From a virus, in IMG/VR virus record IMGVR_UViG_3300006749_000012, positions 15,957 to 79,956 of that record: a stretch of DNA of 64,000 nucleotides; one strand, 5' to 3'. The position numbers were made by a program, and so were the translations under genes. The notes under the pieces are model-generated. The model was not told the origin of the DNA. It saw only the letters and a program-made list of their open reading frames with translations, and searched no databases. Numbering within the stretch: the first letter of the stretch is position 1; each line of letters starts with the position of its first letter. Positions 2 to 16,792 of this stretch are shown piece by piece.

Positions 2-826
2 CATGAACATGAGAATTATGGAATGCATTTGAGTCATGCTAAGAATGCAAGGGTTGACTCTAATATACCATTAGCAAGGGCTGCTAACGAAAGGTCAAAA
101 GAAGTAGTAGCGCACATGAGTCTTGCTGCTCATAAATTGATGGAGCAAGGTATGTCTGAAGAAGACGCAATTTCAGAAGTTGCTCGTCGTATGCGTGAGG
201 CTGATATTTCTAAAGGTAGATTTGTAGAAGAAGAAGGACTTAGAGAAAAGATTGAAAATGTTATTGATTTAATGCTAGGAGCAAGCGGTCATGAAAACTT
301 CAATCTTGGCAAAATACCCACTGACCCTAACGAACATCATCTGAAAACTCCAACAATCGATGAGTTTGGGCATCATGAAGCGCCTGAACACTGGCATGGT
401 CGTATTATTTCCGGTGAGCATGAATTAGCGCCGATAGGTAACAGTAAGAGAGAAGAAGAAATCCCTCCTTCACTTGCACCTAAACCCGCACCCGCACCGC
501 CACCTGCTCCCGTATCTGCACCGACTGTGGGAGTTGACCCTGCTCAAAGATTAATCACAGACCCTCGTAATTATGTCAGACCGGCAGCGCCAGCACCAGC
601 ACCAGTAGCATCACCTGCACCTAGAGTAATACCACCTCCTCAAATGAGGGCTGCTACGCCTTTAGAGCAAGCATTCCAACAAATGATGGGACAGCCTGAG
701 CAGCAAACCTTTTTTGACATAGGTAGCGGTGCGCTTGTCAGACGCTCACACGACATCAACGTCGGGATGGATGCGATTAGGAAAAAAATTGGATACTTTG
801 ATGGGTTTTTGAGAGGTGAGCGGTAA
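2..826 (+). CDS. Hypothetical protein, 5'-truncated; Pro/Ala-rich C-terminal half; possible internal virion protein
   Basis: The frame of ORF 23..826 is open back to the window edge. PAPAPPPAP-type linker at ~470-640. The stop overlaps the next start (TAATG) after an RBS-like GAGGTGA. Confidence 0.6.
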   Translation, partial: HEHENYGMHLSHAKNARVDSNIPLARAANERSKEVVAHMSLAAHKLMEQGMSEEDAISEVARRMREADISKGRFVEEEGLREKIENVIDLMLGASGHENFNLGKIPTDPNEHHLKTPTIDEFGHHEAPEHWHGRIISGEHELAPIGNSKREEEIPPSLAPKPAPAPPPAPVSAPTVGVDPAQRLITDPRNYVRPAAPAPAPVASPAPRVIPPPQMRAATPLEQAFQQMMGQPEQQTFFDIGSGALVRRSHDINVGMDAIRKKIGYFDGFLRGER

Positions 827-2424
827 TGGGTAAAATATTGGTGAAAAAGTCTGTCGACGTGCAATATCCAGTATCAGGTCAGCCAATACTTGTCACCGGC
901 GGTGGCGGAGGTGGCGGCGCTTCTCCAAGGGGGATGACCCTTCAAGAAAGATTAAGTCGAATAGGAGGGGGAACCCTTGGTGCACTCGCTGCTGCGACAG
1001 GTCAACATCGCAGTTTAGGTAGCCTCGCACAAGGTATGGTATCAGGAGCCGCTCAAGGAAAGGCTATCGGAGGAGGTCTTGGACGAATGGCTACCACTCG
1101 TGCGGGCCAAGAGCGTGCTAATTTACGAGAAAGGTTGAAGCAAGAAGCAGCGGAGGGTAAAGCAGCCAAGCAGATAGCGAGGCGGAACCGAGGAGAGGGC
1201 TTTTTAACAAATTTACTCAATCCAATAGGTGCATACAACAGGCGAGTAGCAGATAGAGCAGCGGGTAGACTTGACTTTGCTCGACAGATGAATCGAGAGG
1301 CCGAAGATTATAGTCGAAATATGGCGGAACTATACCGTGATGTTGGTAGAGAACAATTCAATCAAATACGCAGACCTCAGTTGCAGCAAGAAAGAGCCAA
1401 ATTACTTGCTGCTGCTAAAGCAAGAGGTGGAGAATTAGGTGCTGAACAAAAAAGAAAACTGGAAATGTTAGACAGTTTGGTGCAACGAACTGGCGCTCCT
1501 AATTTGGAACAGGCACTCGGCATATTGTCTAGCGTTAATCAAACAGCATCTCCTCCACCGGAACAAGTAGGTAGTAACGTAAACATGGTAGGGGGTAAAC
1601 TTACGGTAAACGGTCAAGAAGTCCAACCTGACGCTCAGGGTAATTACAGTGCGCCGGGAGTTAGCATAACTGGTTCTTCCATAGGTGGTGGTGGTCCTGA
1701 AGAAACTGCTGCTGCTAAAAGAGTAATGGGTAAGGTTTTGGCTGCTGGCGGTAGTAACGCTGACGTTAAAGCCGCTATGACGCAACACATAGGGGAAAGA
1801 ATAGCACAACAAAATAACGTAGGAGCAGTAAACCCTTCTGAGATGACAGAGTATAATGCAAAAGCAATACGTGACACTATGGCAAGGCGTAATGAAAAAC
1901 CACTTGCTACGGAAGAAAGCCATCCTACTCAACAAAAAATAGGAACGGCTATTTCAAACGTATTGGCTACTCAAGAGCCTGAAACAGGTAACCCATTGGG
2001 TAATTTTACCAGTCCCGAAATGACTAATTCTCCTTTAGCGACACAGGGATTAAGTGCAGCAAATATGGTTGCACCGCCCAGTGATGGCGTTGTCGCTGAA
2101 ACTACGGCAGATAAGCAAGCGGAAAATTCACAAATGAACCTTGACACTACCCCTGAGCAAAACTTACACAGTCTTTTTGAAGCATTAGGGCCACCGCAAG
2201 AAGCCCGTAGTGCTGAACCTATTGGCACTGGTTACAGTGGTCCTAATCCAAACGTGCAAGCCTCAGAGAAAGCCGCAAAAGATATGGATTTAGCAGGATT
2301 TTATGCAGCGGCGGAAGAACAAAGTAGACCTATCGAGTATGATGAGTTTGGATTTCCAATACGAACAGGTGAGCCGATGGAATTAGCATTTAGATTACTC
2401 AAGATGATGATATTCAACAGGTGA
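826..2424 (+). CDS. Low-complexity Gly/Ala/Gln-rich protein with N-terminal glycine zipper; candidate internal/ejection protein
   Basis: 532 aa; GGGTLGALAAATG...GMVSGAAQGKAIGGGLG GxxxG repeats, helical middle, disordered tail ending GEPMELAFRLLK. Function is inferred. Confidence 0.5.
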   Translation: MGKILVKKSVDVQYPVSGQPILVTGGGGGGGASPRGMTLQERLSRIGGGTLGALAAATGQHRSLGSLAQGMVSGAAQGKAIGGGLGRMATTRAGQERANLRERLKQEAAEGKAAKQIARRNRGEGFLTNLLNPIGAYNRRVADRAAGRLDFARQMNREAEDYSRNMAELYRDVGREQFNQIRRPQLQQERAKLLAAAKARGGELGAEQKRKLEMLDSLVQRTGAPNLEQALGILSSVNQTASPPPEQVGSNVNMVGGKLTVNGQEVQPDAQGNYSAPGVSITGSSIGGGGPEETAAAKRVMGKVLAAGGSNADVKAAMTQHIGERIAQQNNVGAVNPSEMTEYNAKAIRDTMARRNEKPLATEESHPTQQKIGTAISNVLATQEPETGNPLGNFTSPEMTNSPLATQGLSAANMVAPPSDGVVAETTADKQAENSQMNLDTTPEQNLHSLFEALGPPQEARSAEPIGTGYSGPNPNVQASEKAAKDMDLAGFYAAAEEQSRPIEYDEFGFPIRTGEPMELAFRLLKMMIFNR

Positions 2425-3911
2425 TGAGGTTGTCCGATGTTAACAAACTCATACTTGAAATGGATATGGAAATGTCCAAGAAGTCATTTGAGTATTTCTT
2501 CACTGACATTTTAGGTTTTGATTTCTCAGACCACCACAAACAGTGGCTTGATGGATTGAATGGAAATAGATACTATTGTGTCAAAGCAAGCCGTGACCAC
2601 GGTAAATCTGTTTTCTTTATGTCGTATGCGTTGTGGTTAGGTGCTTTCAATCCTAATACTCACATCATGGTGTTTAGTCACTCTCTTGAACAAACGCTTG
2701 AACACATGAGGTTTATTCGCAACAATATAGAAACGACTGACATCCTCAAAGGATTGAAACCGCAGGGTAAACCTTGGGCTAAGTCTTACTTTGAATTTAC
2801 TAACGGCTCTCGTATAATGGCAAAGTCTGTTGGTGGTGCTACTCGTGGTTTCCACCCTGACGTTGTAGTATGTGACGATATTCTTTGGGGAACCACCACT
2901 TCAGAATTAGCAAGAGCGGCTGATTGGTTCTATACTGTCTTGCTTCCTGTTCTGCATCACACGGGTCGATTAATGATGGTAGGCACTCCTTTCAGTTATA
3001 ACGACCTGTATGCTGAATTAGAAGATAAAGATACCTTCACGGTAGAGACTTATCCTGCTATTTTACCTAATGGCGAACCGCTTTGGCCCGGCAGATGGCC
3101 GCTAGATGCATTGAAAGTTCGTGAAGAATCTATGCCTGCAATCAAATTCGCTCGTGAATATCTTTGTGAGCCTATTCACGATATGTCAAGTATGTTTCCA
3201 ATGTCACTTCTTGAAAAGGCAAGGGACAAAGAGTTGATTTTACTTGATAAGGCCGAGCAAGAATTTGATGAAAATGGCGACCCTAACGGAATATTCGGCC
3301 AACACTTTGTAGGTTGGGACCCTGCTATTGCTTCGGATGCGAACGCTGACTACACTGCTATGGCGGTAATCAGAATGTTACCTGACACAGATGAAAAACA
3401 GTTGATACACGTTGTCAATCAAAAAGGTCTGAACAGTATGGCTCAGAAAAGACAAATCATTATGCTCAATAGTAGATTCCAACCTGACCTTATTGAACTT
3501 GAAGGTAATAATTTCCAACGTATGTTTGAAGCAGAATTGAAAGAAATGAAAGAAGATATACCAATTAAGACATTTATGACTACTCGACAAAAGAAGGAGT
3601 CTATGTTTATGAGTTTACTTTTAGCGTTTGAACAAGGTCAAATGAAAACACCTTGGGGAGATGAAAGAAGCAAAGAGTTTACAAGAGCGCTTGAAACCCA
3701 ACTTAGCAGATTTGGAATGCAAAAGAATGGTAGGTTAGAGTCAGTAGGCTCCCATGATGACTTGGCTATGGCTTTGGCTTTGGCTAACTGGGCGACTAAA
3801 GAGTTCAAAGGTAGCATAGTATTACTAGATGATTACCTTAACGGATTCGATGATTGGTTTGGAGATGTATCTCAAAGGCACGTTGCTGGTGCAAGGTGGT
3901 TTACGATATAA
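2421..3911 (+). CDS. terL: Terminase large subunit
   Basis: Walker A ASRDHGKS, Walker B VVVCDD, coupling motif VGTP, RNase H-like nuclease GWDPA...HDDLAMA; lies upstream of the portal. Confidence 0.95.
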   Translation: MMRLSDVNKLILEMDMEMSKKSFEYFFTDILGFDFSDHHKQWLDGLNGNRYYCVKASRDHGKSVFFMSYALWLGAFNPNTHIMVFSHSLEQTLEHMRFIRNNIETTDILKGLKPQGKPWAKSYFEFTNGSRIMAKSVGGATRGFHPDVVVCDDILWGTTTSELARAADWFYTVLLPVLHHTGRLMMVGTPFSYNDLYAELEDKDTFTVETYPAILPNGEPLWPGRWPLDALKVREESMPAIKFAREYLCEPIHDMSSMFPMSLLEKARDKELILLDKAEQEFDENGDPNGIFGQHFVGWDPAIASDANADYTAMAVIRMLPDTDEKQLIHVVNQKGLNSMAQKRQIIMLNSRFQPDLIELEGNNFQRMFEAELKEMKEDIPIKTFMTTRQKKESMFMSLLLAFEQGQMKTPWGDERSKEFTRALETQLSRFGMQKNGRLESVGSHDDLAMALALANWATKEFKGSIVLLDDYLNGFDDWFGDVSQRHVAGARWFTI

Positions 3912-3918
3912 TTATATG
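3912..3918 (+). promoter_or_regulatory. Putative archaeal TATA box
   Basis: TTATATG starting 29 nt upstream of ATG 3941; spacing similar to the boxes at 7021 and 14201. Confidence 0.35.
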
Positions 3919-3940
3919 ACACCAAAAATTGGAGATTATT

Positions 3941-5248
3941 ATGTGGTCAAGTTTGAGTGTTGGGGATTCAGGGACTCATATCGAAATGGGTCACGATATA
4001 TTGAATATAATAGCATCAAGTCTAGTAAGTCATCCTTTAGTAGACGAAAACATTGCTAAATCAATTGCCTCTCAAAGCGTGATTGTTACTAAAGAAAACA
4101 CTCCTAAGATTCAATACATGCCGTTTGCTCCCACTGGCGAGGGCTGGTTTGAGGATAAAATAGGCAAAAGTGCTAACAGTATTATCAGAGATTTGAGGAA
4201 AGCACGTAGGATATTCAAAGAAGATAAGGAAGAAATAGACAATATCATATCAAATGTAAGAGCGTTAAAGAGTTCTGAAGTAGATGCTACTTTAGCACTG
4301 CTTTCTTGGGGAGACAGTTACAAAGACTCTATGCGTAAGATGGGATTATCTGACAAAGATTTGAGGTCGTTAAGATTATTCGGTGATGCTAGGAAGTCTA
4401 GTTTGATTAGAGCATGTAATCTTTGGAACAGTGCAGAGGATGCGTTAGTTAAGTTAGACGAATTTGAAGACGTTTGGGGTGAAGAAGAAAAGAACGCATG
4501 GGTCAATGCTATGCAGTTGAAAAAAGACGCTAGGTCTATGTGGAGAAGCGCCCTTCACCAATTTGATAATATATCAAAAGAACAACAGAAGTGGTTAAAT
4601 TTGTCAAAAGAAGAACTCAAACAAAAAGGTGCCATGTCTGCGAGGGCTATCGCTAGTAACTTGATTGAAAAAGGAGTTAAAAGACTGAACTCTAATAGGT
4701 TGTCAGGCTTGTTGAATATGTATGGTGAAGAAATCAATATCATAAAAGGGCACAGAAAAGGCGAGTATGTGTATATGGGCCGTGATGGTCTTATAATCAA
4801 AGACAATTGGGCTTATGCGGCAGGGTTTCTTGATGCCGATGGTTACATTACTATAACTGAAAGAGGTGAGCCAAGAGCGGGATTTTTAGCAACAGGTGAC
4901 AGAGGTCGTATGCATTGCGAAGAATTGCATAAAAATATAGGTGCAGGGGTTTTGCAATTAGACCAAAAGATATTTTCAAATAGTCAGAAAAGCCAGCATA
5001 GGGTTACTTTTTATGCCAAAGATGATTTGAATAAACTATTGAATAACCTAACCCCTCATTTAAGGATGAAAAACATGCAAGCGAAGGCAGTTTTGGCATA
5101 TATCGAAGAAAGCGACCCAGTAAGAAAAACTCAATTAAAGCGCTTTGTGCAATTTTCTAATAGAGACGGAACTACCAAAGGTGAGGACTCTTTGCGTCAG
5201 TGGGGAGTAGACAAAGATACTGTGATAAGTTGGGCGGAGGGATTGTGA
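3941..5248 (+). CDS. Protein with helical N-terminal region and C-terminal single-motif LAGLIDADG endonuclease domain
   Basis: WAYAAGFLDADGYITI at ~4808-4855, followed by a typical LAGLIDADG tail (LTPHLRMKNMQA). ATG 3941 follows GGAG; the ORF track starts at TTG 3929. Confidence 0.8.
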   Translation: MWSSLSVGDSGTHIEMGHDILNIIASSLVSHPLVDENIAKSIASQSVIVTKENTPKIQYMPFAPTGEGWFEDKIGKSANSIIRDLRKARRIFKEDKEEIDNIISNVRALKSSEVDATLALLSWGDSYKDSMRKMGLSDKDLRSLRLFGDARKSSLIRACNLWNSAEDALVKLDEFEDVWGEEEKNAWVNAMQLKKDARSMWRSALHQFDNISKEQQKWLNLSKEELKQKGAMSARAIASNLIEKGVKRLNSNRLSGLLNMYGEEINIIKGHRKGEYVYMGRDGLIIKDNWAYAAGFLDADGYITITERGEPRAGFLATGDRGRMHCEELHKNIGAGVLQLDQKIFSNSQKSQHRVTFYAKDDLNKLLNNLTPHLRMKNMQAKAVLAYIEESDPVRKTQLKRFVQFSNRDGTTKGEDSLRQWGVDKDTVISWAEGL

Positions 5249-7014
5249 TGGCAGAGAAAAAAGGAAGGGTAGGTAGACTGTTAGAGACTATCGCTAGTCC
5301 ATTCCGTAGACGAGCCACTCCTGAACCTCAAATGCCACTTTGGACTACTGGTATACAAGAGCCAGTATTAGTTCAAGGAATTACCATACCAGCGCTATAT
5401 GCAGTGGCTAATGAAAATTTAATTTTAAGAACAGTGCTCACTACTCTACAACAAGAAATATTCAGAAGGGGATATTATTGGGAAAAGAAGTTTCATAAGA
5501 AATGCACAGATTGTGATAAAGAATACCAACACGATGTTGAAACTTGCGTTGAGTGTAGTGGTGACGTTCGTGACCCTGACCCGGACCAACTTGTTTACGG
5601 CAGGTGGCTGTTGGAACAGCGCAACTCCATGGAGCAAACATTCATGGATGTCTTGCGTGAAATTGAGTATGACTTGAATATAACTGATGATGCTTTCTTA
5701 ATTCTTATTAAAGAATATTACATAGACCCTGAGACAAACGAAGTATCATTTTATCGTGTAAAAGAGATAGTGAGAGGCGACCCCATTTTTATGAGGATAA
5801 TAGCAGACAAGCGTGGGGTTAGAGGGGGCCGTTTCAGAGTTTGCCCTATCCATCGTAGTCAAGTAAAGTCTTACTCCGAGCAAGAAAAATATTGCGAAAT
5901 ATGCGGTGGTGAGATGGAAGATGTTCATCACGTAAACACAGCCGGTAGTGGAAAGACTCAATATTATTTGAAAGGAGAAGTAATACACGTCAGTAAATAC
6001 CAACCATCTAAATTATATGGGCGCAGTCCCGTATCTACACTTTGGCGACAGGCTATGACGTTGACCGCTATGGACAACTACATGTATACTGCTTACTCAA
6101 AGCGTAGAATACCTAGAGGTATATTGAGTGTGAGCACTGACAATCTTGAGTCAATGAAATCTTTCTTCAAGGCTACTGATGAAAAATTAGAGCGTGACCC
6201 ACACTACATTCCTAAGATTGGTGTTGAATCCAGCACTGGTCGTGGTGGCATTAACTGGGTCAAACTAATGGACAGCCTAGAGGAAATGCAGTATATACCT
6301 GCGAGAGATGAAATGAGGCAACGTATAGCAGCCTTCTATGGTGTATCTAATGTATTTATGATGGACACTGGTAAATCCGGTGGACTCAACAATGAAGGTA
6401 TGCAGATACTCGTTACTAACAGAGCAGTTGAGTTCGGACATAAAGTATACAAAGACCACTTGTTCCCAAGATTATCAGAGCAAATGGATATTACAGATTG
6501 GCAAATCACTCTATATCCAAACGAAGAAGAAGACGAGGTTACTCGTTTACGCCGTGATGAAATGGAAGTAAATATAGCACAACGTATGATGATGATGGGC
6601 TACCAACCTAACTTAACAGAGGATGCGAATCGAGACATACGTTTCATTTACAAGCAACCTGAGCCGGGCCAACAACCTCCTGCTGGTCCACAGCAAGGTA
6701 GAATGCCTCCGGGCGGAATGCCTATGGGAGGTATGCAAATGGGAGGAGGCATGGGAACTCCCGGCGCTCTCCCTAGTCGAAATATTTCACCTCAAGGGGC
6801 CGCTCAGTTAGCAAGGCAATCGCAAATGGGTATGGGTCAACCCGGAGGAGAGGGGATGGGACTAAGGAATAGAGGCCCTGCTAGCCCTCAAAATAGAACC
6901 AGTATGGGGGCGGGTGCGCCTTTTTCTAGCGTCCAACAAAGAGGCCCTCAGCCTAGTGGTGTCCAGCAAGCAGCACAAAGTGTAGTTAATGCGAGAAATC
7001 CAAGGGGTGCTTGA
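5248..7014 (+). CDS. Portal protein with two Zn-ribbon insertions and a Gly/Met/Pro/Gln-rich tail
   Basis: HK97-portal-like motifs (EVIHV...LYGRSPV, IPRGIL, IAAFYGV). CTDC/CVEC and CPIH/CEIC pairs. Start ATG 5248 overlaps the previous stop (TGATG). Confidence 0.88.
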   Translation: MAEKKGRVGRLLETIASPFRRRATPEPQMPLWTTGIQEPVLVQGITIPALYAVANENLILRTVLTTLQQEIFRRGYYWEKKFHKKCTDCDKEYQHDVETCVECSGDVRDPDPDQLVYGRWLLEQRNSMEQTFMDVLREIEYDLNITDDAFLILIKEYYIDPETNEVSFYRVKEIVRGDPIFMRIIADKRGVRGGRFRVCPIHRSQVKSYSEQEKYCEICGGEMEDVHHVNTAGSGKTQYYLKGEVIHVSKYQPSKLYGRSPVSTLWRQAMTLTAMDNYMYTAYSKRRIPRGILSVSTDNLESMKSFFKATDEKLERDPHYIPKIGVESSTGRGGINWVKLMDSLEEMQYIPARDEMRQRIAAFYGVSNVFMMDTGKSGGLNNEGMQILVTNRAVEFGHKVYKDHLFPRLSEQMDITDWQITLYPNEEEDEVTRLRRDEMEVNIAQRMMMMGYQPNLTEDANRDIRFIYKQPEPGQQPPAGPQQGRMPPGGMPMGGMQMGGGMGTPGALPSRNISPQGAAQLARQSQMGMGQPGGEGMGLRNRGPASPQNRTSMGAGAPFSSVQQRGPQPSGVQQAAQSVVNARNPRGA

Positions 7015-7020
7015 GGAACA

Positions 7021-7027
7021 TTAAAGT
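7021..7027 (+). promoter_or_regulatory. Putative archaeal TATA box
   Basis: TTAAAGT starting 29 nt upstream of ATG 7050. Confidence 0.3.
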
Positions 7028-7049
7028 TATGAGGTGTGTTGGGATGACT

Positions 7050-7385
7050 ATGGACCTGAAAAAATTAGACCCTATGGCTCGTAAATTGAGGACGCATGTA
7101 GACGGGTTTTACAAGGCACTAGAATCAAACGACGGTATGTCTGCTCGCAATCACATTGCTGAAGTAATGAAGTATGCTGATTACCTAAGTAACGACATAG
7201 AAAGCGCTGTCGTCAAAGAAGACCATGTTTTGGGAGTCAACGACCGATTCGCCGGTGGAGTTCCTGTTATGAAAATGACAGAAGTTCAAAGCGTTCACGA
7301 AACCACAACAAATGTTCTACCGGGAACCATTCGCACTTCTAGGTTTGGTAATATCAACAGGCGACTATCTAATAGAACATTGTGA
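7050..7385 (+). CDS. Hypothetical protein (head module)
   Basis: ORF 7011..7385; more likely start is ATG 7044 or 7050; helical N-terminal part. Confidence 0.6.
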   Translation: MDLKKLDPMARKLRTHVDGFYKALESNDGMSARNHIAEVMKYADYLSNDIESAVVKEDHVLGVNDRFAGGVPVMKMTEVQSVHETTTNVLPGTIRTSRFGNINRRLSNRTL

Positions 7386-7394
7386 GGTGATTAC

Positions 7395-7766
7395 GTGAGC
7401 GATGAGGGGGAGAATGTCGCAGAGCGCCTTATGGGTGCTTTGATTACTAAAATGGAAGTTATGGATGCGGGTATCCAAACACTGAAGGCTGAGAATCAAC
7501 AACTTAAAAAAATGATTCAGAATCCTGCGGCACTTTTGAAAAAAGCAGGTTTCGTATCTATAACCACTCAGATGCCATCGGACGTAACAGTAGATGGCTT
7601 TAGGGGAGATGTAGACGATTTTATACTAAAAGGTGAAGGTGGAGAGATAATAGACGTGCCTACTAGCAACGCAGATTTCCACAAAATGGAGTGGGCTGAT
7701 ATTCACGCTTTGGCCGAAGAAGCCAAGCAAAATGGTGCGATAGGGAATCAAATAGGAATGGAGTGA
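7395..7766 (+). CDS. Hypothetical coiled-coil protein (head module)
   Basis: GAGGTGA RBS and GTG start. C-terminal VPTSNADFHKMEWADIHALA resembles the scaffold C-terminus IPSTQELGNMSWDDVHSLA. Confidence 0.7.
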   Translation: MSDEGENVAERLMGALITKMEVMDAGIQTLKAENQQLKKMIQNPAALLKKAGFVSITTQMPSDVTVDGFRGDVDDFILKGEGGEIIDVPTSNADFHKMEWADIHALAEEAKQNGAIGNQIGME

Positions 7767-7770
7767 TATT

Positions 7771-8163
7771 ATGAGGCCAAGATTTGAATTAGCAAACGAC
7801 CAAGCGTATGAATTGTTGAAAGCGGCTAAAGATTTAGAAGCAAGGATAGCAAAGAAAGAAGGTAGTATGCCTGACTATACTAGTCAAAAAGAAGGCTCTG
7901 ACGTAGGTCACTATCGATTTGAAACAGCAGTTGGTCAAGTTCCTAACACATTTTACTATACAAACAATACAGTTCCAAATGTAGAGGACATTGCCAACAA
8001 AGGAGCAATATCTGAAAACAGCGACGTTTTGACTAGAGAATCTCCTTACTATCCTACTGCGTTTAGCACGACAGGTGCTCTTGAAAACTTCAAGGGTGGC
8101 GACGGTCCGACCATGACCGATGTAAAGAAGTCACTAGACCGATTGTCCAGCCGTCTGAATTAA
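7771..8163 (+). CDS. Hypothetical protein (head module)
   Basis: 130-aa ORF with GGAGTGA RBS; contains ELLKA motif. Confidence 0.7.
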   Translation: MRPRFELANDQAYELLKAAKDLEARIAKKEGSMPDYTSQKEGSDVGHYRFETAVGQVPNTFYYTNNTVPNVEDIANKGAISENSDVLTRESPYYPTAFSTTGALENFKGGDGPTMTDVKKSLDRLSSRLN

Positions 8164-8170
8164 ACGGCTG

Positions 8171-11100
8171 GTGGTGTTAATGCGAGAAGGTCCACTTGAT
8201 ACCTTAGATAGGCATCGCTTAACCTTCGTAGATTCACTATTCGACGGTATAGGGAAAGCAGATGCCGGTGCTGATTTTTATTTGTCTGCAATAAGTGCAG
8301 AAAGAAAGGGGTATAAATTAAGCGTAGATGATGAAACTCTTATCAAAATGTTTGGCAGTATAATTGCTAAACAGGACGAGCAAGAAGTTACTGGTTCGCA
8401 AGTATACGACTTAGGTAACGAGGTAGAAGATTCAACTCTTAGAGAAACTGGAGTTTCACAGTTTGATGTGGCTACTGATTTAGGTAGTAGAGGAGATGCT
8501 TTGTCAGATAATCCTTCTTACAAAACAGACCGAGTTATGCATGCTGAGCCGGGAAGTGCTGGTAATTTAGCAGGTCATAAGTGGAATATGGAAGACGGAG
8601 ATTTGGTTGAAGACCCGCATGCTACAAGTAATTACATTGGAGATGTGCAAGAAAGGTTTGTTGACCATTTAGGTGACTTTTTTCTTGCTGATAATCCGAT
8701 AGATGAATCGCAGTCTCAAATAGACCATCACAAAGAATCCTCTTGGGAGGACTGGACTAACAGTAATGAGCATGACTTTTTACTAAATGAACATCATTTC
8801 GGTAGGTTAGGGACAGTGGGTAACGATTACCTTACCAATCACAGTCTTTATCAACATCATTACAATCAATGGGAAAGAGATAACGCAGACAGGATTGATG
8901 AGAGAAAACAAATACTATCTCAGCAAGGTATGGACGATAATGAAATCGAACACGAGATGCAAAAAATTCACATGGACCAAGTAAAAAGAGATTGGCAAGA
9001 AAATTTAGGATTCTTAGATTTCATGCTTGGATTAGAATGGCTTACTCCTGAAGAAAGAAAGTCCTTTTATGACCATGTTGAGGAATACGGTGCATCTGAT
9101 ATTACTCAACCTTTCAAATTAAACAGGCACAATATGGCGGGAAATCCTGATTTCATACCGAGAGCGAAAAGAAACTTTGCTCAAAGGTTTTCAGGACTCT
9201 ACGACTCTTGGACTAGGGGCGCAGCCTACCCCGGACAGGGTTTGAGAAAAGAACCAATTGGATTGCCCGATGATGTTCGGGTAGTAGAAAGAGCGCACAA
9301 TACTCTTGCGTTAGATGAACATAGAAGTCCCGGTAAGACTGGCTCTGCTATGGAAAGGGCCATTGCCTACATGAATGAAATGATGAGAGATTATTACTTT
9401 GACCAAATGCCTAACCAAACGCCTCCTCAATATAGTGCTAGCGATATACCTACATTTACAGAATTAGAAGATGGAAGTTTCGATGTCGATACAGTTCCTA
9501 GATTTAAAGCAGATAAAAAAAGCAAATTCGGTGGTAGATACAGTCATGTTTCTTATGATGCGTTAAAACTCATGCTTGGTATAGATGAAAATAATCAAAT
9601 CTTTGAAGATAACTCTCATCCGGTATGGGGCTCATACTGGAAAAAGGATAACGCCCCTTTCTCTCAAGAAGAAGTGGACAAGATAATGGATAGTAGGGGC
9701 AAGGCTGCTAAGCAACTAGCGGCCTCCGGTAGAATGAGTAAAAACCATGGCTACATGCATTATGGTCATCACATAAATGGTGACAAATACGATTACTCAG
9801 ATGATGATAATACGCTTGCTACTTATTGGCACAGTATGTATACTGGAGGAGGATTAGGTAAAATGCCTAATGATTTGTTTGATTTGATACATCATCATAG
9901 CGTATTGTTTGAGCCGGACTACGCTTCTGACGAAGGGGCACAGACTGAAGAAAAAACTGCTAGGCAACTGCAAGCAGAATTAGATGATGAGAAGGACTTT
10001 TTATCCGCTGCACAAATAGATGAGAGAGAGGAGCAGATACGAAGTAAAATTCGTGAAGAAATGTTGAGGGAGGAATACGGGGAAGAAGAAACTTCGACTG
10101 ATGACATTCCTCTGAAAAGAAGAATGGATGGGGCACAAGAGCATAGTCTATTTTTCTCAAGAACTGGTAATAGCATAATGCCTAGGGTTAGATTAGATAG
10201 TCAGTTAGAAAGAGTGGACTCAGGGTTATCTTCTCTATTAGGTCCTTTTGGTCAACCTGAACTAGGTTTGTTCAATATGATTGCTGGGCAAGGTAAAATG
10301 GACCAAGTTAGTTTTAGAGGTGACATTCAAGATTCTTTGAAAAATATGGGACCTTCTAATGTTAATTTTAGCAGAAGTCAGAAGGGTTCATCAGGTGAAA
10401 ATCTCGATATGGCTAGACACAGCGGAACGGTTGACAGCGCTCATAAAAACAAAGTATTTGGTGAATACAACAGTGCTACCCAGTCAGGTAATTACGATGA
10501 GGAGGCTAGACAAGCAGCCCATGCTGAGATGATTGGTCGAGATTCAATAGGGTTGAGTATCCATAATCCCTTCGTTAGCGGTGCGGGTAGATTCGATGAA
10601 ATGGGTCAGCGGAACAGAAATGCTCACCATCACAAACTTACATCTTATCTTTTGGGATTTGCTAGACCGCCTATGTCTCCTTTGAAACAACCGCTAACTA
10701 GAGAAATGAGTAGGCGACCTGAGCACCTTGAACATCACCCCTTAGCGAACCCTGAAGATATGGAAAGTATCAAGAGAAGGCAACTAACTTCTTCTAAATT
10801 TGATATTGAGCAGGAATTATCTAATTTAAAAGAAGAATACGAAACTAATTTGAGTCGCACAGATGACGAAGATAAACGTCAAGAACTCAAAGAAGAATAT
10901 GAGAGAAGAAAAAATAGACTAGAATCCGATGGTCAATTCGTATCAGAAGACGCTGTGAGAGAAGGAATTGTGCAACAACCACCCGGATTACTTTACAGTA
11001 GATTGAGTGCGAGTGAACCTATTACAGAAGAAGAAGAACGATTTATCACTTTGTCAGATTTATCTGCTACTTTACAAAGTAGGTTATTTGAATTACAAGA

Positions 11101-14100
11101 CCCTGAAGGCTTTGCTAGAGACAGCCAAAGTAGGGGTATCAAGCAAGTCGCTGACGAGTTAGGTCAAACTAGTTCTTTGCAACGACAAACTAGTGAGGAA
11201 CGTGAAAAAGACTTCACAGAATTAGGCAGCATGCTCGGCTTAGATATGAGTGACCCTGACGCAGTTCAAAATAAATTGAAAGAACTAACTGGACAACTAA
11301 GTGAATTGGAGCCAGCGCTGAATAGACTTGGTGGAGGTTTAGGTATGGTGGGTATGAGAAGACTACCAAAACACCAAGATGCCTATGTGAGTCGCTTTAG
11401 AGACAAATTACATGCTGACACTTTAGCGATAAGAGATGCAGCGATTCATTTGGTTGAAAATGAAATAGACCCCAATATATTATCTGAGATTCTTAACCCT
11501 AACTTACCAATTGAAACAGTAGCAGCCAACGTCAGAATGTTGGCTAGAATGGCTAACGAATATTTACACAAAGCACCTCATCAAGACCATGGTATACACA
11601 CTTTAGGGCACGGTGAGCACAATGAAGAAGGAGATTCTGCACAACAAGCACTGGGTCAAATCAGAACAGATTTGAATAACCACGATAACAGTTTGACTCC
11701 CAGTGATAATTTAAGTTTAATACAGGCTAGTCAAAGTGACTCTCCACAAGAAAAACAAGCCTTGCTAAGTCAACTTGCTGATAAATTAGGTATAGACAAA
11801 GATGACCCAAGGCAAATTGATACTTTGGCTAGGTTAGCAGATGAACACATGCTCGATGCCATAAAGCAAAATGGCACTGGTTATTCTCCACCTATAATGA
11901 CCATAAGGCAATACTATCAACAACAGTATCCTGATTTCAATATAGAAGAAGCCCTGACTTCTCTTGGTAGATTTCGCAGTCGTGAAAAGGGGTTAGAATT
12001 GTTTAACAATTTGAAAAGACTAGAATCGAGTCTTAGCCAATCTCCTGAAAAATACGGAGTTAAATTGCACACTGCAAACAACTCGGACGATAGAGAAATT
12101 GGACCTGAAAAGACTTTGAGGAGGAAGGGTAAGATTGGAGACAACGAATACACTGTAAAACCAACCAAAGCAGGCGGAAAGTCATCTGTAAAAAATGAAA
12201 GTCAGGTATTCAGAGCCAAACAGATGTTAGATTCTATTTTGGTAGGTATGCCTGAAGTAGAAGAAATCGATACTAGTGTAACTAGAAGGGGTATGGGCAG
12301 AGTCCCTGTTGATAGATTCGGGCCTAATTCTCATTCCGTCCATAGTCTATATGATTCGGCAGGGTTTAGGCACGAGCAAGGTGATTTATTCCGTCCTAAT
12401 TTCAATTTCAAAATAAACCCTAGGGGTAAAGTCAAGTTAGAATTAGTTGACCCTATGAACAATCCTCAAAAACTGTTGCAACCCTTAGAGTCTTTTTGGG
12501 AGGCAGCATTATCAGATAAATCAAAACTCTTTCCTCCCGAATGGTTAGAAATGTTAAGAAACCCTGAACACGCTATCGCAAGGGAAAGCCTCAACAATCC
12601 TTTCAGATTTGCTGCTCAAAGAAAACCAAATAGTATAGATGCTACTAGGAACCAAGATGCTCACTCCACTACTAAGTCTGAAATAGGGTTAGCAGACTTA
12701 ACTAATCCTGACATAATCCGTAAAGAACTTGGTAGTAAGGTTCCCTTGTTACAACCAATGCATCGCATTTTTAACATAAGTGATTTAGAGCATCTTCGTG
12801 GATTTACAGGCGACTGGATAGTTTCTCACATGCCTGAAGGCGAAAGAGGATTTGTAGAAAAGAAAGACGACGAAGTTTCATCCAAGAGTTTTGATTTATC
12901 TGATGATGATAAAGATAATTTCAAAGAGGTAACCGACGAAGATTTCAACGCTGATGTAATTAAATTAGAAGACGGATACTACATATTTGATGTCATTGAG
13001 TTTGCTGGTAAAGAAGTGCACGATGTTCCATTAGATGACCGTATCAAAATACTTAGAGGTGGTATGGAAGGAGTAGAGAACGTCCATCTCCCAAGCGCTA
13101 GTGACACGAGATTGTCAGACGATATAGGTTTGAAATCTGTGGTTAAAGATTTGCAAAAAGAGCATGAGAATATATTGCTTAGAGATGCAAAGTCAGTTTA
13201 TATGGCTGGCGAAATGCGTCACCCAAAGTGGGTCATGTTGAAGCCGGGTAGAGATGTGGTTCTCAGGGTATTGGAAAAAAGGGGAAGCGGACCCTACACT
13301 TACAGATTAGGAACAGGACCTATTACACAAGATGACAAGATAGGGGATAGAGCAGTTCAATCCGATGGTGAAACTTACATGGACTTAGGCGCAGCCTTCA
13401 ATAGTCCTGACAAGTATAACGTCGGTGACCACGTTAGAGTGAACGTCGCTAATGTGAGTAAAGTAGAATCTGCTGAAGATGATACGATATATACATTGAC
13501 AGGTTCAGAAATAGAAGGAGAAGCAGAAGGCGAGGGCTTAGTTAGTCAAGAGACACTTGGTATGCTAGCCAAGTCAGATAACATTCAATGGTTGTGCGAA
13601 GTTCATAGAGCCAAAAGTGGAATCAGAGTGGTAATGCCACAAGGCGATGTAGTTTACAAAGCCACTGAATCTTTGGGAGCATGGACTGTCCATAGTCCAT
13701 TAGCATCGAATAACTATCTCATTCGACTGTCTGAAAGTCAGAGAGTATACTGGAGTCCTATTGCTGGTGCTTTACTGAAAGCAGATTTAGAAGTAAAAGA
13801 AGAAGTTCATGAAAGCAAAGGAGATGGCAAGCCCCTCATACCTCCTAAGAAAATACAAGATGCACAGTGGTGGAGAAAGAAAAAAAAGCAAAAGATTCTA
13901 GTCAAAGGATTAACCTTGATTGATAAATTTATGAAAAGTGGAGTAGGTGCAGTTGGTCAATCGAGCACTGGCGCTATGGGGTTAGGTATAGGATACGCTA
14001 CTCCGATAGAATCTCCTATGGGTCCAACTAATTTGCATGATGAAAAAACTATGCCTGATTATGATAATCGCAAACGACCGGGTGAGGATTCTCCCATAGA

Positions 14101-14200
14101 GCCTGATACAGAGGAAAAAGACGAAGATAAACGCATGACTGTGCCCACAGAGGGTGGAGAGTTAGAAATAACAGAAGACAAGGCTATACTCCATACTTGA
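8171..14200 (+). CDS. Large (2009 aa) protein with C-terminal degenerate ATP-dependent DNA ligase fold; probable virion-associated protein
   Basis: Ligase-like motifs at ~12740-13560: LLQPM, SHMPEGER (motif I with K->M), YYIFDVI (IIIa), ENILLRD (IV), KWVMLKP (V), then an OB-like segment. The N-terminal ~1500 aa are acidic/His-rich and unrecognised. Likely start is ATG 8180. Confidence 0.75.
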   Translation: MVLMREGPLDTLDRHRLTFVDSLFDGIGKADAGADFYLSAISAERKGYKLSVDDETLIKMFGSIIAKQDEQEVTGSQVYDLGNEVEDSTLRETGVSQFDVATDLGSRGDALSDNPSYKTDRVMHAEPGSAGNLAGHKWNMEDGDLVEDPHATSNYIGDVQERFVDHLGDFFLADNPIDESQSQIDHHKESSWEDWTNSNEHDFLLNEHHFGRLGTVGNDYLTNHSLYQHHYNQWERDNADRIDERKQILSQQGMDDNEIEHEMQKIHMDQVKRDWQENLGFLDFMLGLEWLTPEERKSFYDHVEEYGASDITQPFKLNRHNMAGNPDFIPRAKRNFAQRFSGLYDSWTRGAAYPGQGLRKEPIGLPDDVRVVERAHNTLALDEHRSPGKTGSAMERAIAYMNEMMRDYYFDQMPNQTPPQYSASDIPTFTELEDGSFDVDTVPRFKADKKSKFGGRYSHVSYDALKLMLGIDENNQIFEDNSHPVWGSYWKKDNAPFSQEEVDKIMDSRGKAAKQLAASGRMSKNHGYMHYGHHINGDKYDYSDDDNTLATYWHSMYTGGGLGKMPNDLFDLIHHHSVLFEPDYASDEGAQTEEKTARQLQAELDDEKDFLSAAQIDEREEQIRSKIREEMLREEYGEEETSTDDIPLKRRMDGAQEHSLFFSRTGNSIMPRVRLDSQLERVDSGLSSLLGPFGQPELGLFNMIAGQGKMDQVSFRGDIQDSLKNMGPSNVNFSRSQKGSSGENLDMARHSGTVDSAHKNKVFGEYNSATQSGNYDEEARQAAHAEMIGRDSIGLSIHNPFVSGAGRFDEMGQRNRNAHHHKLTSYLLGFARPPMSPLKQPLTREMSRRPEHLEHHPLANPEDMESIKRRQLTSSKFDIEQELSNLKEEYETNLSRTDDEDKRQELKEEYERRKNRLESDGQFVSEDAVREGIVQQPPGLLYSRLSASEPITEEEERFITLSDLSATLQSRLFELQDPEGFARDSQSRGIKQVADELGQTSSLQRQTSEEREKDFTELGSMLGLDMSDPDAVQNKLKELTGQLSELEPALNRLGGGLGMVGMRRLPKHQDAYVSRFRDKLHADTLAIRDAAIHLVENEIDPNILSEILNPNLPIETVAANVRMLARMANEYLHKAPHQDHGIHTLGHGEHNEEGDSAQQALGQIRTDLNNHDNSLTPSDNLSLIQASQSDSPQEKQALLSQLADKLGIDKDDPRQIDTLARLADEHMLDAIKQNGTGYSPPIMTIRQYYQQQYPDFNIEEALTSLGRFRSREKGLELFNNLKRLESSLSQSPEKYGVKLHTANNSDDREIGPEKTLRRKGKIGDNEYTVKPTKAGGKSSVKNESQVFRAKQMLDSILVGMPEVEEIDTSVTRRGMGRVPVDRFGPNSHSVHSLYDSAGFRHEQGDLFRPNFNFKINPRGKVKLELVDPMNNPQKLLQPLESFWEAALSDKSKLFPPEWLEMLRNPEHAIARESLNNPFRFAAQRKPNSIDATRNQDAHSTTKSEIGLADLTNPDIIRKELGSKVPLLQPMHRIFNISDLEHLRGFTGDWIVSHMPEGERGFVEKKDDEVSSKSFDLSDDDKDNFKEVTDEDFNADVIKLEDGYYIFDVIEFAGKEVHDVPLDDRIKILRGGMEGVENVHLPSASDTRLSDDIGLKSVVKDLQKEHENILLRDAKSVYMAGEMRHPKWVMLKPGRDVVLRVLEKRGSGPYTYRLGTGPITQDDKIGDRAVQSDGETYMDLGAAFNSPDKYNVGDHVRVNVANVSKVESAEDDTIYTLTGSEIEGEAEGEGLVSQETLGMLAKSDNIQWLCEVHRAKSGIRVVMPQGDVVYKATESLGAWTVHSPLASNNYLIRLSESQRVYWSPIAGALLKADLEVKEEVHESKGDGKPLIPPKKIQDAQWWRKKKKQKILVKGLTLIDKFMKSGVGAVGQSSTGAMGLGIGYATPIESPMGPTNLHDEKTMPDYDNRKRPGEDSPIEPDTEEKDEDKRMTVPTEGGELEITEDKAILHT

Positions 14201-14207
14201 TTAAATA
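14201..14207 (+). promoter_or_regulatory. Putative TATA box for a (near-)leaderless protease/capsid transcript
   Basis: TTAAATA starting 31 nt upstream of ATG 14232, which has no RBS-like motif. Confidence 0.5.
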
Positions 14208-14231
14208 GTATGAATAGCCTGTATTGAAACA

Positions 14232-15650
14232 ATGGCGACAGTCGCAGCACTGAGAACTTCCCCCGTCAACCACGGTGGGACCATCAGTATTGTTAAGGCT
14301 GATAATGACTTAGTAATCGCTGGTTACGCATCTGTTGAGATGGTGGACAAGCAAGGTGACTTGATTACCCGTGGAGCACTCAAGAATGCTTTTGGTGACT
14401 TTATGAAAGCAGAGGGTTACCGGAATGTCCAACTTGCTCATTCTAACATACAAGTCGGTAGCGTAATACCACATTACACTGACTCTGATGGTCGTGTATG
14501 GAAATCAGGTGTAGATGACGCAGGGATGTTTGTAGTAATCAAACTACGAGACGACATCGAAAAAGCGAGAGAAGTCGCTAATCAAATTCGCAAAGGAGCC
14601 TTGAGAGGTTTCAGTATTGGAGGACAAGCATTCAAGCGAATGCGTAAAAGTGACCAAGAGCATGGTGACTATACAGAAATCTCCAAACTGGAATTGCACG
14701 AGGTTACTATTTGTGAAAAAGGTATTAACCCGGAGGCGACATTCCGTATATTGAAGGAGGACACATCTATGAACGACGATAATGTATTAGGCGAATTGTC
14801 TAGTGTATTGGACAGATTGAACGGTAGACTTGACGCTATGGAAAAAGAGGATAAGGATATGCCTGAAGGTCTTAAAGAGCACTTTAAGGACAAGAAAAAC
14901 GACAAAAAAGACGAAGGTGAAAAAATGGCTGACCAAGATGAAAAAGAAGCAATGTATGGTGGCGAACACAAAGGTATGCATGAGCAAAAGGGTATGCACG
15001 GCGATATGGCAAAAGGAGAATATTCCGATGTTATCACTAGCGAATACCTTAACTGGATGGAAAACACTCTGAAATCTCAGGGCGTAGACATCGGTGGCGC
15101 TCGTGCTCACTTTGACGACATTAGTAAGGCTAACCTTGGTAGCACACCTGAACAGATTGGAGATGGAGCAGATTACTTCAGCGGCCAAGTAAAGGGTCGT
15201 GCACAAGAAGGTGGCTCACCATCTACTAACGCTATTGGTAAACTCAACAGCGGTGGAAGCGGCGAAGTTGCAAAAGGATACTTACATCCTAACTCAGTTA
15301 GCGCTTCTGACCTAGAGGCTGCTTACGAAGTTTACAAGGCTGCTGCACTAGAAGAACAATTCAAAGGTAACCTTGGAAGTGTATTCGCAGACAGACTATC
15401 AAAGGAATTGAGCGCAGAAGCAAATGCACGAGAGGCTGCTTCATTTGACGCACGCACACCACTTGCTAACATTGAGAAAGCACTTGGCGACCTAAGTAGT
15501 CGAATTGACAATATCAGCGCTTCTGCACCAGCAGAAGGAACTGACCTTAGAAAATCCGTTTCCACAGTAGAAATACCATCTACACAAGAACTAGGTAACA
15601 TGTCTTGGGACGATGTTCACAGCCTAGCAGGGAGTGTTTGGAACAACTGA
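14232..15650 (+). CDS. HK97-family prohead protease fused to a scaffold-like C-terminal region
   Basis: IAGYAS...VDKQGD, QLAHS (His), LRGFSIGG (Ser), LHEVTICEKGINPEA; then ~295 aa charged/helical; immediately upstream of the capsid gene. Confidence 0.92.
   Translation: MATVAALRTSPVNHGGTISIVKADNDLVIAGYASVEMVDKQGDLITRGALKNAFGDFMKAEGYRNVQLAHSNIQVGSVIPHYTDSDGRVWKSGVDDAGMFVVIKLRDDIEKAREVANQIRKGALRGFSIGGQAFKRMRKSDQEHGDYTEISKLELHEVTICEKGINPEATFRILKEDTSMNDDNVLGELSSVLDRLNGRLDAMEKEDKDMPEGLKEHFKDKKNDKKDEGEKMADQDEKEAMYGGEHKGMHEQKGMHGDMAKGEYSDVITSEYLNWMENTLKSQGVDIGGARAHFDDISKANLGSTPEQIGDGADYFSGQVKGRAQEGGSPSTNAIGKLNSGGSGEVAKGYLHPNSVSASDLEAAYEVYKAAALEEQFKGNLGSVFADRLSKELSAEANAREAASFDARTPLANIEKALGDLSSRIDNISASAPAEGTDLRKSVSTVEIPSTQELGNMSWDDVHSLAGSVWNN
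14970..15005 (+). repeat. Imperfect 18-bp tandem duplication encoding KGMHEQ-KGMHGD
   Basis: aaaggtatgcatgagcaa / aagggtatgcacggcgat inside the scaffold region. Confidence 0.5.
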
Positions 15651-15664
15651 ATGGAGGAATTATT

Positions 15665-16792
15665 ATGGCAAGAAATTATATGAGAACAGTTAACGACATG
15701 GAGCGCTACTACTACGGTGCAGGTAACTCAATGGGTTACTCTTACACTGGTAGTGAACTATTGAAAGCAGACGCTCCATTGTTGAGCACAACCGCTGGAA
15801 CATACCAAGCAATCTACGGACGCAAAGTATGGTCACAGTTGAACCAAGAATTTAACGCATTTTCTATCCTTCCTAAGAAGCCTTGGGACCGAAGTGGATG
15901 GAGAGTTGTAACTGCAAAGCCTACGACAGCAGTCGGTGGCGGTATTGCAGAGAACGGCACACTGCCTGATACTACCAAGCCTACATTCCAAAATGTTGCT
16001 GCAAAGCCTAAGACAATCGCACACACATTCGATATGTCTGAGGTTGCAATCTTTTTGAATGACAAGGACGACGGACTTGGCGACATTCGCTCTGTCTTGA
16101 AAGAAGAAATGGGTAAGCACCACGCTGAGCACATTAACCAAATGTTAACTGAGGATGTAACCACAGTTGCAGGTAACGACTTTGAGTCATTAGACCGTGT
16201 AACTACTGGTAACAACAGCATGACATCCGGCACTCACTACGATGCTGGTGATGAGGACATTTACAGTATTGACCGAAGTGCTAACACTTGGTCATTTGCT
16301 GAAGATGATGCTAACTCTAGTTCTACTAACAGAACATTATCACTAGACCAACTGGATAACATATTCAGACTTGTTTGGGAACGTGGTGGCAATCCAAAGG
16401 TTATGCTAACAGGATATGACACTCTAATGAGAATCCAGCAACTATTGCAGGCTCAACAGAGATTCATGGAAGAAAAGAGAGTAGTTCCTTCTTACAATGG
16501 AGTTAAGGGAGTGCCCGGAGTTGAAGCAGGTTTCATTGTTGCAACTTACAACGGTGTTCCAATCATTCCATCTAAAGATATAGCAAAGGACGGCATCAGC
16601 AGAATTTACATGCTAGATACTGACTACCTATACTTTAGCACTGCAAAACCAACTCAATACTTTGAGTCGGGAATCGAAACAGGCGACCCATTCGCAATTA
16701 ACAGGTTAGGACAAGAAGGTCTATACCGCACAATGGGAGAAATTTGGACAACATTCTTTGGAGGTCAAGGTTCTATCCGTGACTTACAGTGA
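15665..16792 (+). CDS. Major capsid protein (HK97 fold)
   Basis: Follows the protease; GGAGG RBS before ATG 15665; 375 aa; HK97-like motifs (IAENGTLP, YNGVPIIPS, IYMLDTDYL). Confidence 0.9.
   Translation: MARNYMRTVNDMERYYYGAGNSMGYSYTGSELLKADAPLLSTTAGTYQAIYGRKVWSQLNQEFNAFSILPKKPWDRSGWRVVTAKPTTAVGGGIAENGTLPDTTKPTFQNVAAKPKTIAHTFDMSEVAIFLNDKDDGLGDIRSVLKEEMGKHHAEHINQMLTEDVTTVAGNDFESLDRVTTGNNSMTSGTHYDAGDEDIYSIDRSANTWSFAEDDANSSSTNRTLSLDQLDNIFRLVWERGGNPKVMLTGYDTLMRIQQLLQAQQRFMEEKRVVPSYNGVKGVPGVEAGFIVATYNGVPIIPSKDIAKDGISRIYMLDTDYLYFSTAKPTQYFESGIETGDPFAINRLGQEGLYRTMGEIWTTFFGGQGSIRDLQ

Follow-up and report, generated by a model that had tools for sequence, protein, structure and literature searches.

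The 64,000-nucleotide stretch of DNA analysed here, which we call the window (IMG/VR record IMGVR_UViG_3300006749_000012, positions 15,957 to 79,956; part of an 80-kb contig), opens with the head module of a magrovirus, one of the tailed viruses that infect marine group II archaea. Our comparative analysis of this module leads us to favour, with moderate confidence, an ordinary head maturation of the HK97 type, specific for lysine, in an archaeal virus lineage. A preliminary description of the window had gone further and proposed that short motifs of hydrophobic residues followed by lysine recur throughout the head block as a processing code for proteins packaged inside the capsid. All 20 strings that it quoted are present in the open reading frames (ORFs) to which they had been assigned, and the pattern is real in the scaffold, in the capsid protein and at a few single sites, but it is not spread across the block. 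Under the scheme we favour, a serine protease of the S78 family would enter the procapsid fused to its own scaffold, anchored to the shell interior by the C-terminal helix of the latter (M-x-W-x-D-(I/V)-H-x-L-A). After assembly it would cut behind lysine in exposed hydrophobic-x-K sites followed by A, S or G, removing the 34-amino-acid (aa) leader of the capsid protein at K34/A35, freeing the protease domain at K22 and near K175, and cutting the scaffold, at up to nine positions, into peptides small enough to exit the shell. The same rule probably governs a 123-aa protein, most simply seen as a small extra scaffolding or scaffold-associated protein, and a 124-aa ORF (at K69); some eight N-terminal residues of a 532-aa protein would probably be trimmed, and the C-terminal 200 aa of a 2009-aa protein may perhaps be cut as well. 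The remaining strings of the preliminary description are due to chance or to structure.

In the surface ocean, magroviruses rank among the most abundant viruses of archaea, but to our knowledge none has been cultivated and almost nothing is known of how their particles are built. A capsid site kept throughout the family, combined with a simple rule, predicts the mature N-terminus of the capsid protein, the sizes of the scaffold fragments and which of the small ORFs undergo processing. That an HK97-type protease should cut after lysine is in itself expected rather than surprising. Alignments of every head, tail and replication protein were built from 233 related IMG/VR loci, and the capsid alignment was additionally based on 124 representatives at 32-58% identity. 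A pattern-based locus search with the 532-aa protein gave just one relative, and TerL served as the anchor in its place. Window coordinates in the next two sections refer to the plus strand.

Capsid leader and protease-scaffold fusion

The major capsid protein (15665..16792; 375 aa, with a putative 34-aa N-terminal propeptide) is identified by PHROG 24667 (E = 3e-59) and by Pfam SU10_MCP, and it has the HK97 fold. Its AlphaFold2 (AF2) model reaches a predicted local distance difference test (pLDDT) score of 88, matches 1ohg_A in Foldseek with E = 1e-10, and superposes on this HK97 structure in VIA-align with Z 17.6 and a root-mean-square deviation of 3.8 over 255 residues. The top structural matches of the model are phage capsids and encapsulins; at the sequence level, no relative of the capsid protein turned up in the PDB. 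The numbering of the proposed maturation site is correct with the ATG at 15665 as the start, which is where every homologue starts. This site, K34/A35 (S-E-L-L-K / A-D-A-P, 15764..15769), is invariant in 67 close relatives. Of the 124 representatives, 109 have a basic P1 (93 K, 16 R), 88 have A, S or T at P1' (67, 11 and 10, respectively), and 95 have L, I, V or F at P3. Upstream, the leader varies both in sequence and in length (16-108 aa), and directly downstream lies a conserved core, A-D-A-P-x-L-T-T-T-G. The junction is thus fixed between a variable leader and a conserved N-arm, and K34, listed in the preliminary description, is among the strong candidate sites. The haloarchaeal siphovirus HVTV-1, whose capsid protein shows 34-37% identity to this one, carries K102/A103-D in the same alignment column, behind a basic leader of 102 aa.

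Structural evidence is consistent with this position. The AF2 model is confident from about residue 31 onwards, residues 1-30 having low pLDDT and being disordered. In the structural alignment, residue 49 of the model corresponds to residue 119 of HK97 and to residue 176 of T5. Counting back from there, the mature N-termini of HK97 (S104) and T5 (residue 160) fall at model residues 33-35, an approximate placement in that the N-arm itself is unaligned. N-terminal extensions of the capsid proteins of archaeal tailed viruses have been treated as scaffolding domains (Liu et al. 2021, PMC8651126).

The gene immediately preceding that of the capsid protein encodes the prohead protease (14232..15650), in which the S78 domain, at about aa 23-177, is joined to an acidic linker and a helical scaffold (aa 180-472). 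The match to PF04586 Peptidase_S78 scores 43.5 bits against a cut-off of 21 and covers aa 23-177, and the PHROG head maturation protease family is matched with E = 8e-14. Neither H70 nor S128 varies among 30 relatives or in gp119 of HVTV-1; by their place in the profile they form the putative catalytic pair. A homologue search with the fusion protein gave close relatives only (74-87% identity) and added no power. The domain is bracketed by two candidate sites that had been pointed out before. The first, K22/A23 (I-V-K / A, 14295..14300), immediately precedes the first strand of the protease domain; its lysine is invariant in 30 sequences, with A, S or G at P1' and hydrophobic residues at P2 and P3, and HVTV-1 keeps the equivalent P-V-F-K171 / S. 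At the end of the domain lies K175/E176 (R-I-L-K / E, 14754..14759), a plausible cut site. Its lysine is invariant as well, but P1' is E, Q or H in magroviruses, off the small-residue rule; in HVTV-1 the nearby V-V-S-K339 / A-D is shifted by one residue.

It is in the scaffold that the candidate sites accumulate. Nine lysines followed by G, S or A line its helical part (K261/G, K281/S, K299/A, K321/G, K348/G, K369/A, K378/G, K416/A and K441/S; 15012..15557), so that within residues 261-472 such a residue follows 9 of 11 lysines (p = 0.002). These lysines are conserved in 0.72-1.0 of sequences amid variable flanks, whereas scaffold lysines with no G, S or A next to them, which lie mostly in the acidic linker, are not conserved. 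The pair K441-S442 is invariant even when HVTV-1 is included, at 21% identity, and is followed by the C-terminal helix motif M-S-W-D-D-V-H-S-L-A (15600..15629), conserved in all relatives. The AF2 model of the fusion is poor (pLDDT 52); in it, K22, K175, K261, K321, K348 and K441 lie in coil, K281 and K299 at helix ends, and five of the six protease-scaffold sites of the preliminary description, which had suggested such a structural check, are in predicted coil. Cuts at all nine scaffold sites would give fragments of 9-38 aa, in line with the need to empty the shell of scaffold. We infer that cleavage occurs and that the S78 protease performs it.

The HK97 protease cuts gp5 at K103/S104, and gp4/gp5 of this phage resemble the magrovirus pair in several ways: the protease belongs to the same Peptidase S78 family, its gene lies directly upstream of that for a capsid protein of the same fold, and the proposed K34/A35 counts back to the N-arm position of the HK97 cut. 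Unlike in HK97, the magrovirus scaffold is fused to the protease instead of being the delta domain of the capsid protein, the leader is short (34 aa here, 16-108 in the family), the host is an archaeon and the cut is predicted from sequence. The closest cultivated relatives of the magrovirus are HVTV-1, HCTV-1 and HCTV-5 (Druskaviridae), whose capsid proteins are 33-37% identical to that of the window; those of hundreds of IMG/VR contigs are 83-94% identical. The capsid kinship between magroviruses and haloarchaeal siphoviruses has already been described (PMC5434244). HVTV-1 shares the gene order, the fusion of protease and scaffold and the presence of large genes between portal and protease, as well as K-A-D at the capsid junction, a lysine ahead of the protease domain and K-S ahead of the C-terminus of the scaffold. 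It differs in its longer capsid leader, in a 170-aa N-terminal extension of the protease, and in having neither the M-x-W-x-D-(I/V)-H-x-L-A helix nor the small ORFs. As a separate observation, the HVTV-1 capsid protein (KC117377, L081 13779-15152) contains a second L-R-K / A-D at residues 68-72 that coincides with the start of the magrovirus capsid protein, and hence the halovirus leader may be cut twice.

Basic P1 residues also occur in the HK97-like capsid cluster of staphylococcal phage phi12 and SaPIbov5 Ccm, where the measured cuts lie at R128/L129 and K87/Q88 (PMC8569155). Unlike the magrovirus sites, these have no small residue at P1', and the authors saw little sequence specificity (PMC8569155). 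A literature search on the specificity of S78 proteases brought up only the phi12 and SPN3US papers.

Accessory head proteins and candidate tags

Beyond these two proteins, conserved candidate sites are found in two small ORFs upstream of the 2009-aa gene. The 123-aa protein (7395..7766) is made up of a conserved, helical-looking N-terminal part, K79/G80 (F-I-L-K / G, 7629-7634), a linker with (I/V)-D-V-P-T and a C-terminal helix motif, M-E-W-A-D-I-H-A-L-A (7686-7715). K79 is invariant in 30 sequences within an otherwise variable linker context, with hydrophobic residues at P2 and P3 and a P1' that drifts among G, S and A. The 124-aa ORF (7011..7385; true start probably at 7044 or 7050) has its candidate at K69 (A-V-V-K / E, 7215-7220), a lysine invariant in 29 sequences although flank conservation, at 0.44, is the lowest of any site. 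Its P3 is always I, V or L, and 23 of 28 relatives have S or A at P1', which is E here. Both strings had been listed in the preliminary description, and both stand as candidates. The same cannot be said of ELLK/A in the 130-aa protein (7771-8163): this lysine (K17) is 72% conserved, shifts register between relatives and sits in a helix-like stretch, which makes it ambiguous and doubtful as a site.

One and the same module closes both the 123-aa protein and the scaffold: a candidate cut site (K79/G and K441/S, respectively) is followed, after 15-20 aa of linker that include (I/V)-(D/E)-(I/V)-P-(S/T), by a helix of the form M-x-W-x-(D/E)-(I/V)-H-x-(L/M)-A. The helix lies about 20 aa after the lysine in both proteins. 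Both families keep the module, which is absent from every other ORF of the 80-kb genome. We infer that the helix is a candidate shell-binding peptide that would hold both proteins inside the shell, the protease site releasing the rest. Short C-terminal peptides target proteins to the interior of HK97-fold shells in two well-known cases, the cargo-loading peptides of encapsulins and the helix-turn-helix of the P22 scaffold. By analogy, these may serve as a model for the shared helix, which has no sequence similarity to either. Since its N-terminal part is conserved and helical-looking, the 123-aa protein is at least as likely to be an extra small scaffolding protein as to be cargo.

A different motif is repeated further upstream. 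The 532-aa protein has at its C-terminus G-E-P-M-E-L-A-F-R-L-L-K (2368..2403), one of 8-9 copies in the genome of (G/S)EPM(D/E)xA(W/F)xxL(L/M)K, spread over six proteins whose genes precede that of the terminase. The other copies lie on the same strand upstream of the window (positions 340, 883, 1273, 4174, 7718, 13880 and 14120 of the contig, C1), with internal copies in a 671-aa protein (three) and a 455-aa protein (two) and degenerate ones at the N-termini of a 117-aa and a 322-aa protein. Such repetition cannot be due to chance. The related loci hold 52 instances, in which the final lysine is always kept and P1' is unrestricted. This motif, too, closes with two hydrophobic residues and a lysine, and it may be a targeting tag, a cleavage tag or both. 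A profile built from it matches neither the N-terminus of the capsid protein nor that of the 130-aa protein, and these are therefore not copies of the tag. In one relative (L075, near position 3465) a 140-aa ORF that lies about 2 kb beyond the capsid gene, on its downstream side, has the C-terminus G-E-P-M-E-L-A-Y-D-A-L-L-K-M-R-G-V, so the tag is not limited to genes upstream of the terminase. RLLK/M in the 532-aa protein, previously listed as a processing site, is the end of this motif, and as a general cleavage site it was rejected, being present in only 3 of about 35 relatives. What does hold in this protein is the N-terminal site, M-G-K-I-L-V-K-K / S (826..849). Some 30 fast-evolving relatives, at 32-61% identity, retain its (V/I)-L-V-x-K pattern with A, G or S next to the lysine.

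The 2009-aa protein gave a divided result. Its first 1500 aa or so are hypervariable and nearly unalignable between close relatives, and its last 500 aa are highly conserved. The N-terminal strings reported for it fail on conservation: K29 (IGK/A) was rejected with Pro, Phe, Leu and His among the P1' residues of relatives, and K67 and K446 were rejected as not conserved, a verdict that covers the string IIAK/Q. Four C-terminal sites (K1801/S, K1870/A, K1912/G and K1922/S; 13571..13939) have two hydrophobic residues before the lysine and S, A or G after it, and are conserved, with variable or indel stretches following K1801 and K1870. They are plausible instances of the cleavage rule, if weakly supported ones. 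Both size and location in the head module fit the giant head proteins of the polyvalent or DarB-like kind. The protein has no PHROG match, and its sole domain signal is a sub-threshold Pfam match to DNA_ligase_A_M (E = 1e-4, 22.4 bits against a cut-off of 26.2, aa 1597-1691). At the expected position of ligase motif I it reads M-P-E-G-E-R, apparently lacking the catalytic lysine.

These findings bear on the fuller reading of the preliminary description, according to which the 124-, 123-, 130-, 532- and 2009-aa proteins and the tagged proteins upstream are capsid-internal cargo, some of them polyproteins, loaded by tags, released by cuts after lysine and delivered with the DNA into the Poseidoniales host. 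We regard this as tentative and, on the evidence at hand, unlikely. The genes lie between portal and protease, where phages encode internal and ejection proteins, and HVTV-1 has large genes at the same place (for a 1048-aa protein and for a 1313-aa 'zeta toxin' protein); the hypervariable N-terminal part of the 2009-aa protein is what one would expect of a host-facing protein; and the scaffold/123-aa helix module and the always lysine-ended GEPMxxA(W/F)xxLLK motif are shared tags. Against this, what would place the candidate proteins in the capsid is gene position and short shared tags. None matches a family of known internal or ejection proteins in Pfam, PHROG or ESM Atlas searches, and the 2009-aa protein, besides losing its N-terminal sites, has K-[GSA] dipeptides at exactly background level (25/119 against 21%). 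The 123-aa protein could equally well be a scaffolding protein destined to leave the capsid, and the GEPM motif, with its unrestricted P1', could serve another purpose.

Precedents for packaged head proteins do exist. In T4, the internal proteins carry a short targeting peptide that ends at the cut site. T4 (gp21), phiKZ and SPN3US each use one prohead protease with a short linear rule on many head substrates, as would the magrovirus (PMC10052503, PMC7411985). They differ in cutting after Glu (L/I-x-E or S/A/G-x-E) with a protease of another family, and in that their substrates are proven virion proteins, whereas packaging of the magrovirus candidates is hypothetical. The tags would also differ in placement, those of the magrovirus being C-terminal or internal as well as N-terminal; the candidates for a T4-like role are the C-terminal helix after K79 and K441, GEPMxxA(W/F)xxLLK and the N-terminus of the 532-aa protein. 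The Dar system of phage P1 likewise combines very large and small head-associated accessory proteins, of which DarA is cleaved by the prohead protease Pro and DarB, of about 2000 aa, is packaged (PMC12810830), although none has a sequence relationship to magrovirus proteins. In its boldest form, the idea would be that magroviruses load fast-evolving proteins by short tags, that S78 cuts after lysine detach the payload, and that this is delivered into Poseidoniales cells. The candidate cargo would be the 2009-aa protein with its hypervariable N-terminal part and the multi-tag 'polyproteins' upstream of the terminase, and the candidate tags would be the M-x-W-x-D-(I/V)-H-x-L-A helix and the GEPM repeat. 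We consider this form unlikely. Be that as it may, the shared module of cut site and helix and the GEPM motif provide candidate handles for finding capsid-borne proteins in magroviruses.

Statistical support and reach of the cleavage rule

For the loose motif [ILVMF][ILVMFA]K[ASGED], 24 matches in the head block compare with 10.2 predicted by shuffling (z = 4.3), and 28 in the remaining window with 22.2. Expressed per lysine, the rate is 24/315 (7.6%, or about 1 in 13) in the head block versus 28/731 (3.8%) elsewhere (Fisher p = 0.013), and in the shuffle comparison neither the reversed motif nor versions centred on R, E, D, Q, N, S or T are in excess. The motif was defined post hoc, after the data had been seen, and hence this raw enrichment is weak evidence. 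The K-[GSA] dipeptide is enriched in the protease-scaffold only (18/36, p = 0.005). Homologue alignments allow another count, that of conserved hydrophobic-x-K-[ASG] sites per conserved lysine, which stands at 17/48 for the capsid-interior candidates, 7/47 for TerL, the LAGLIDADG-like protein and the portal, 2/36 for tail proteins and 5/75 for replication proteins; R-, E- and D-centred versions are rare in all of these groups. The comparison of head with tail and replication proteins that had been proposed in the preliminary description thus comes out in favour of the interior candidates (17/48 versus 7/111, p = 9e-6), but it becomes marginal once the protease-scaffold is left out (6/30 versus 7/111, p = 0.03; p = 0.07 against replication proteins alone). 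Judged by conservation one at a time, the capsid site, protease K22, the scaffold sites, those of the 123- and 124-aa proteins and the N-terminus of the 532-aa protein are strong, and at least five of the 20 sites fail. The statistical case leans mainly on the scaffold, while the remaining candidate sites are backed singly, by their context.

A narrower explanation would admit classical substrates only, that is, the capsid leader and the protease's own scaffold, and would ascribe the matches in the small ORFs and in the 532- and 2009-aa proteins to structure or chance. The marginal statistics without the scaffold, the large share of head-block lysines that the loose motif takes in and the sites that fail on conservation all speak for it, as does the over-representation of hydrophobic-x-K-[ASG] in TerL, the portal and the LAGLIDADG-like protein, which are unlikely substrates. 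It is nonetheless hard to reconcile with K69 and K79, each the sole invariant residue of a variable linker, with a P1' that varies between S, A and G, as one expects of a protease site and not of a packing contact. The equal spacing of K79 and scaffold K441 from the shared helix, and the persistence of the N-terminal motif of the 532-aa protein in a family that has diverged to 32% identity, also count against it, and we judge it rather improbable. That no proteolysis takes place at all, the pairs of lysine and small residue being helix caps or lysines in contact with shell or DNA and the capsid leader staying on the mature particle, would accord with the frequency of K-G and K-S at helix ends, the location of several sites in or at the ends of predicted helices and the shortness of a 34-aa leader relative to the HK97 delta domain, but it is very improbable given an intact S78 protease with invariant His and Ser beside the capsid gene in every relative, a protease-scaffold fusion that must go to make room for DNA, and a junction that stays fixed while the leader varies from 16 to 108 aa.

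HK97-type maturation after lysine, which we continue to prefer, has its own difficulties. TerL, the portal and the LAGLIDADG-like protein account for eight of the 24 head-block matches, two replication proteins equal the head block in motif density, and the raised conserved rate of the former three proteins means that part of the signal is a general habit of lysine in helical proteins. Conserved as it is, the K-A-D-A-P of the capsid protein could be a structural element of the N-arm that is never cut. K175 and, in this genome, K69 depart from the small-residue rule with Glu at P1'; K369, K378 and K416 lie inside predicted helices, albeit in a poor model; and the four C-terminal sites of the 2009-aa protein are located in a stretch that is generally conserved. 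The viruses are uncultivated, and trypsin-based metaproteomics is blind to cuts after lysine; the case is one of conservation and context.

Gene map and the LAGLIDADG-like protein

The head module begins with the gene for the 532-aa protein (826-2424, plus strand) and continues with TerL (2421-3911), the LAGLIDADG-like protein (3929-5248, plus strand; 439 aa), the portal (5200-7014), the three small ORFs for the 124-, 123- and 130-aa proteins (7011-7385, 7395-7766 and 7771-8163), the 2009-aa protein (8171-14200, plus strand), the protease-scaffold fusion and the capsid protein. TerL and portal were assigned by Pfam and PHROG family searches. Pfam, PHROGs and ESM Atlas yielded no named family for the 123-, 124-, 130- and 532-aa proteins. 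These family searches did turn up an ESM Atlas neighbour with Mu-like_Pro, at a score of merely 0.79, which is a lead at best.

The LAGLIDADG-like protein is found at full length between TerL and portal in 80 of 80 TerL-anchored loci, at 41-98% identity. It is not a mobile homing endonuclease; from this distribution it looks like a domesticated core gene of the packaging and head module. Neither of the cleavage sites once suggested for it survives: IVTK/E is not conserved, and LIIK/D, invariant as it is, forms a strand entering the LAGLIDADG helix, with an invariant Asp at P1'. Further downstream, in the tail region, the window contains an ORF of 5236 aa (28909-44619), by far the largest gene of the contig.

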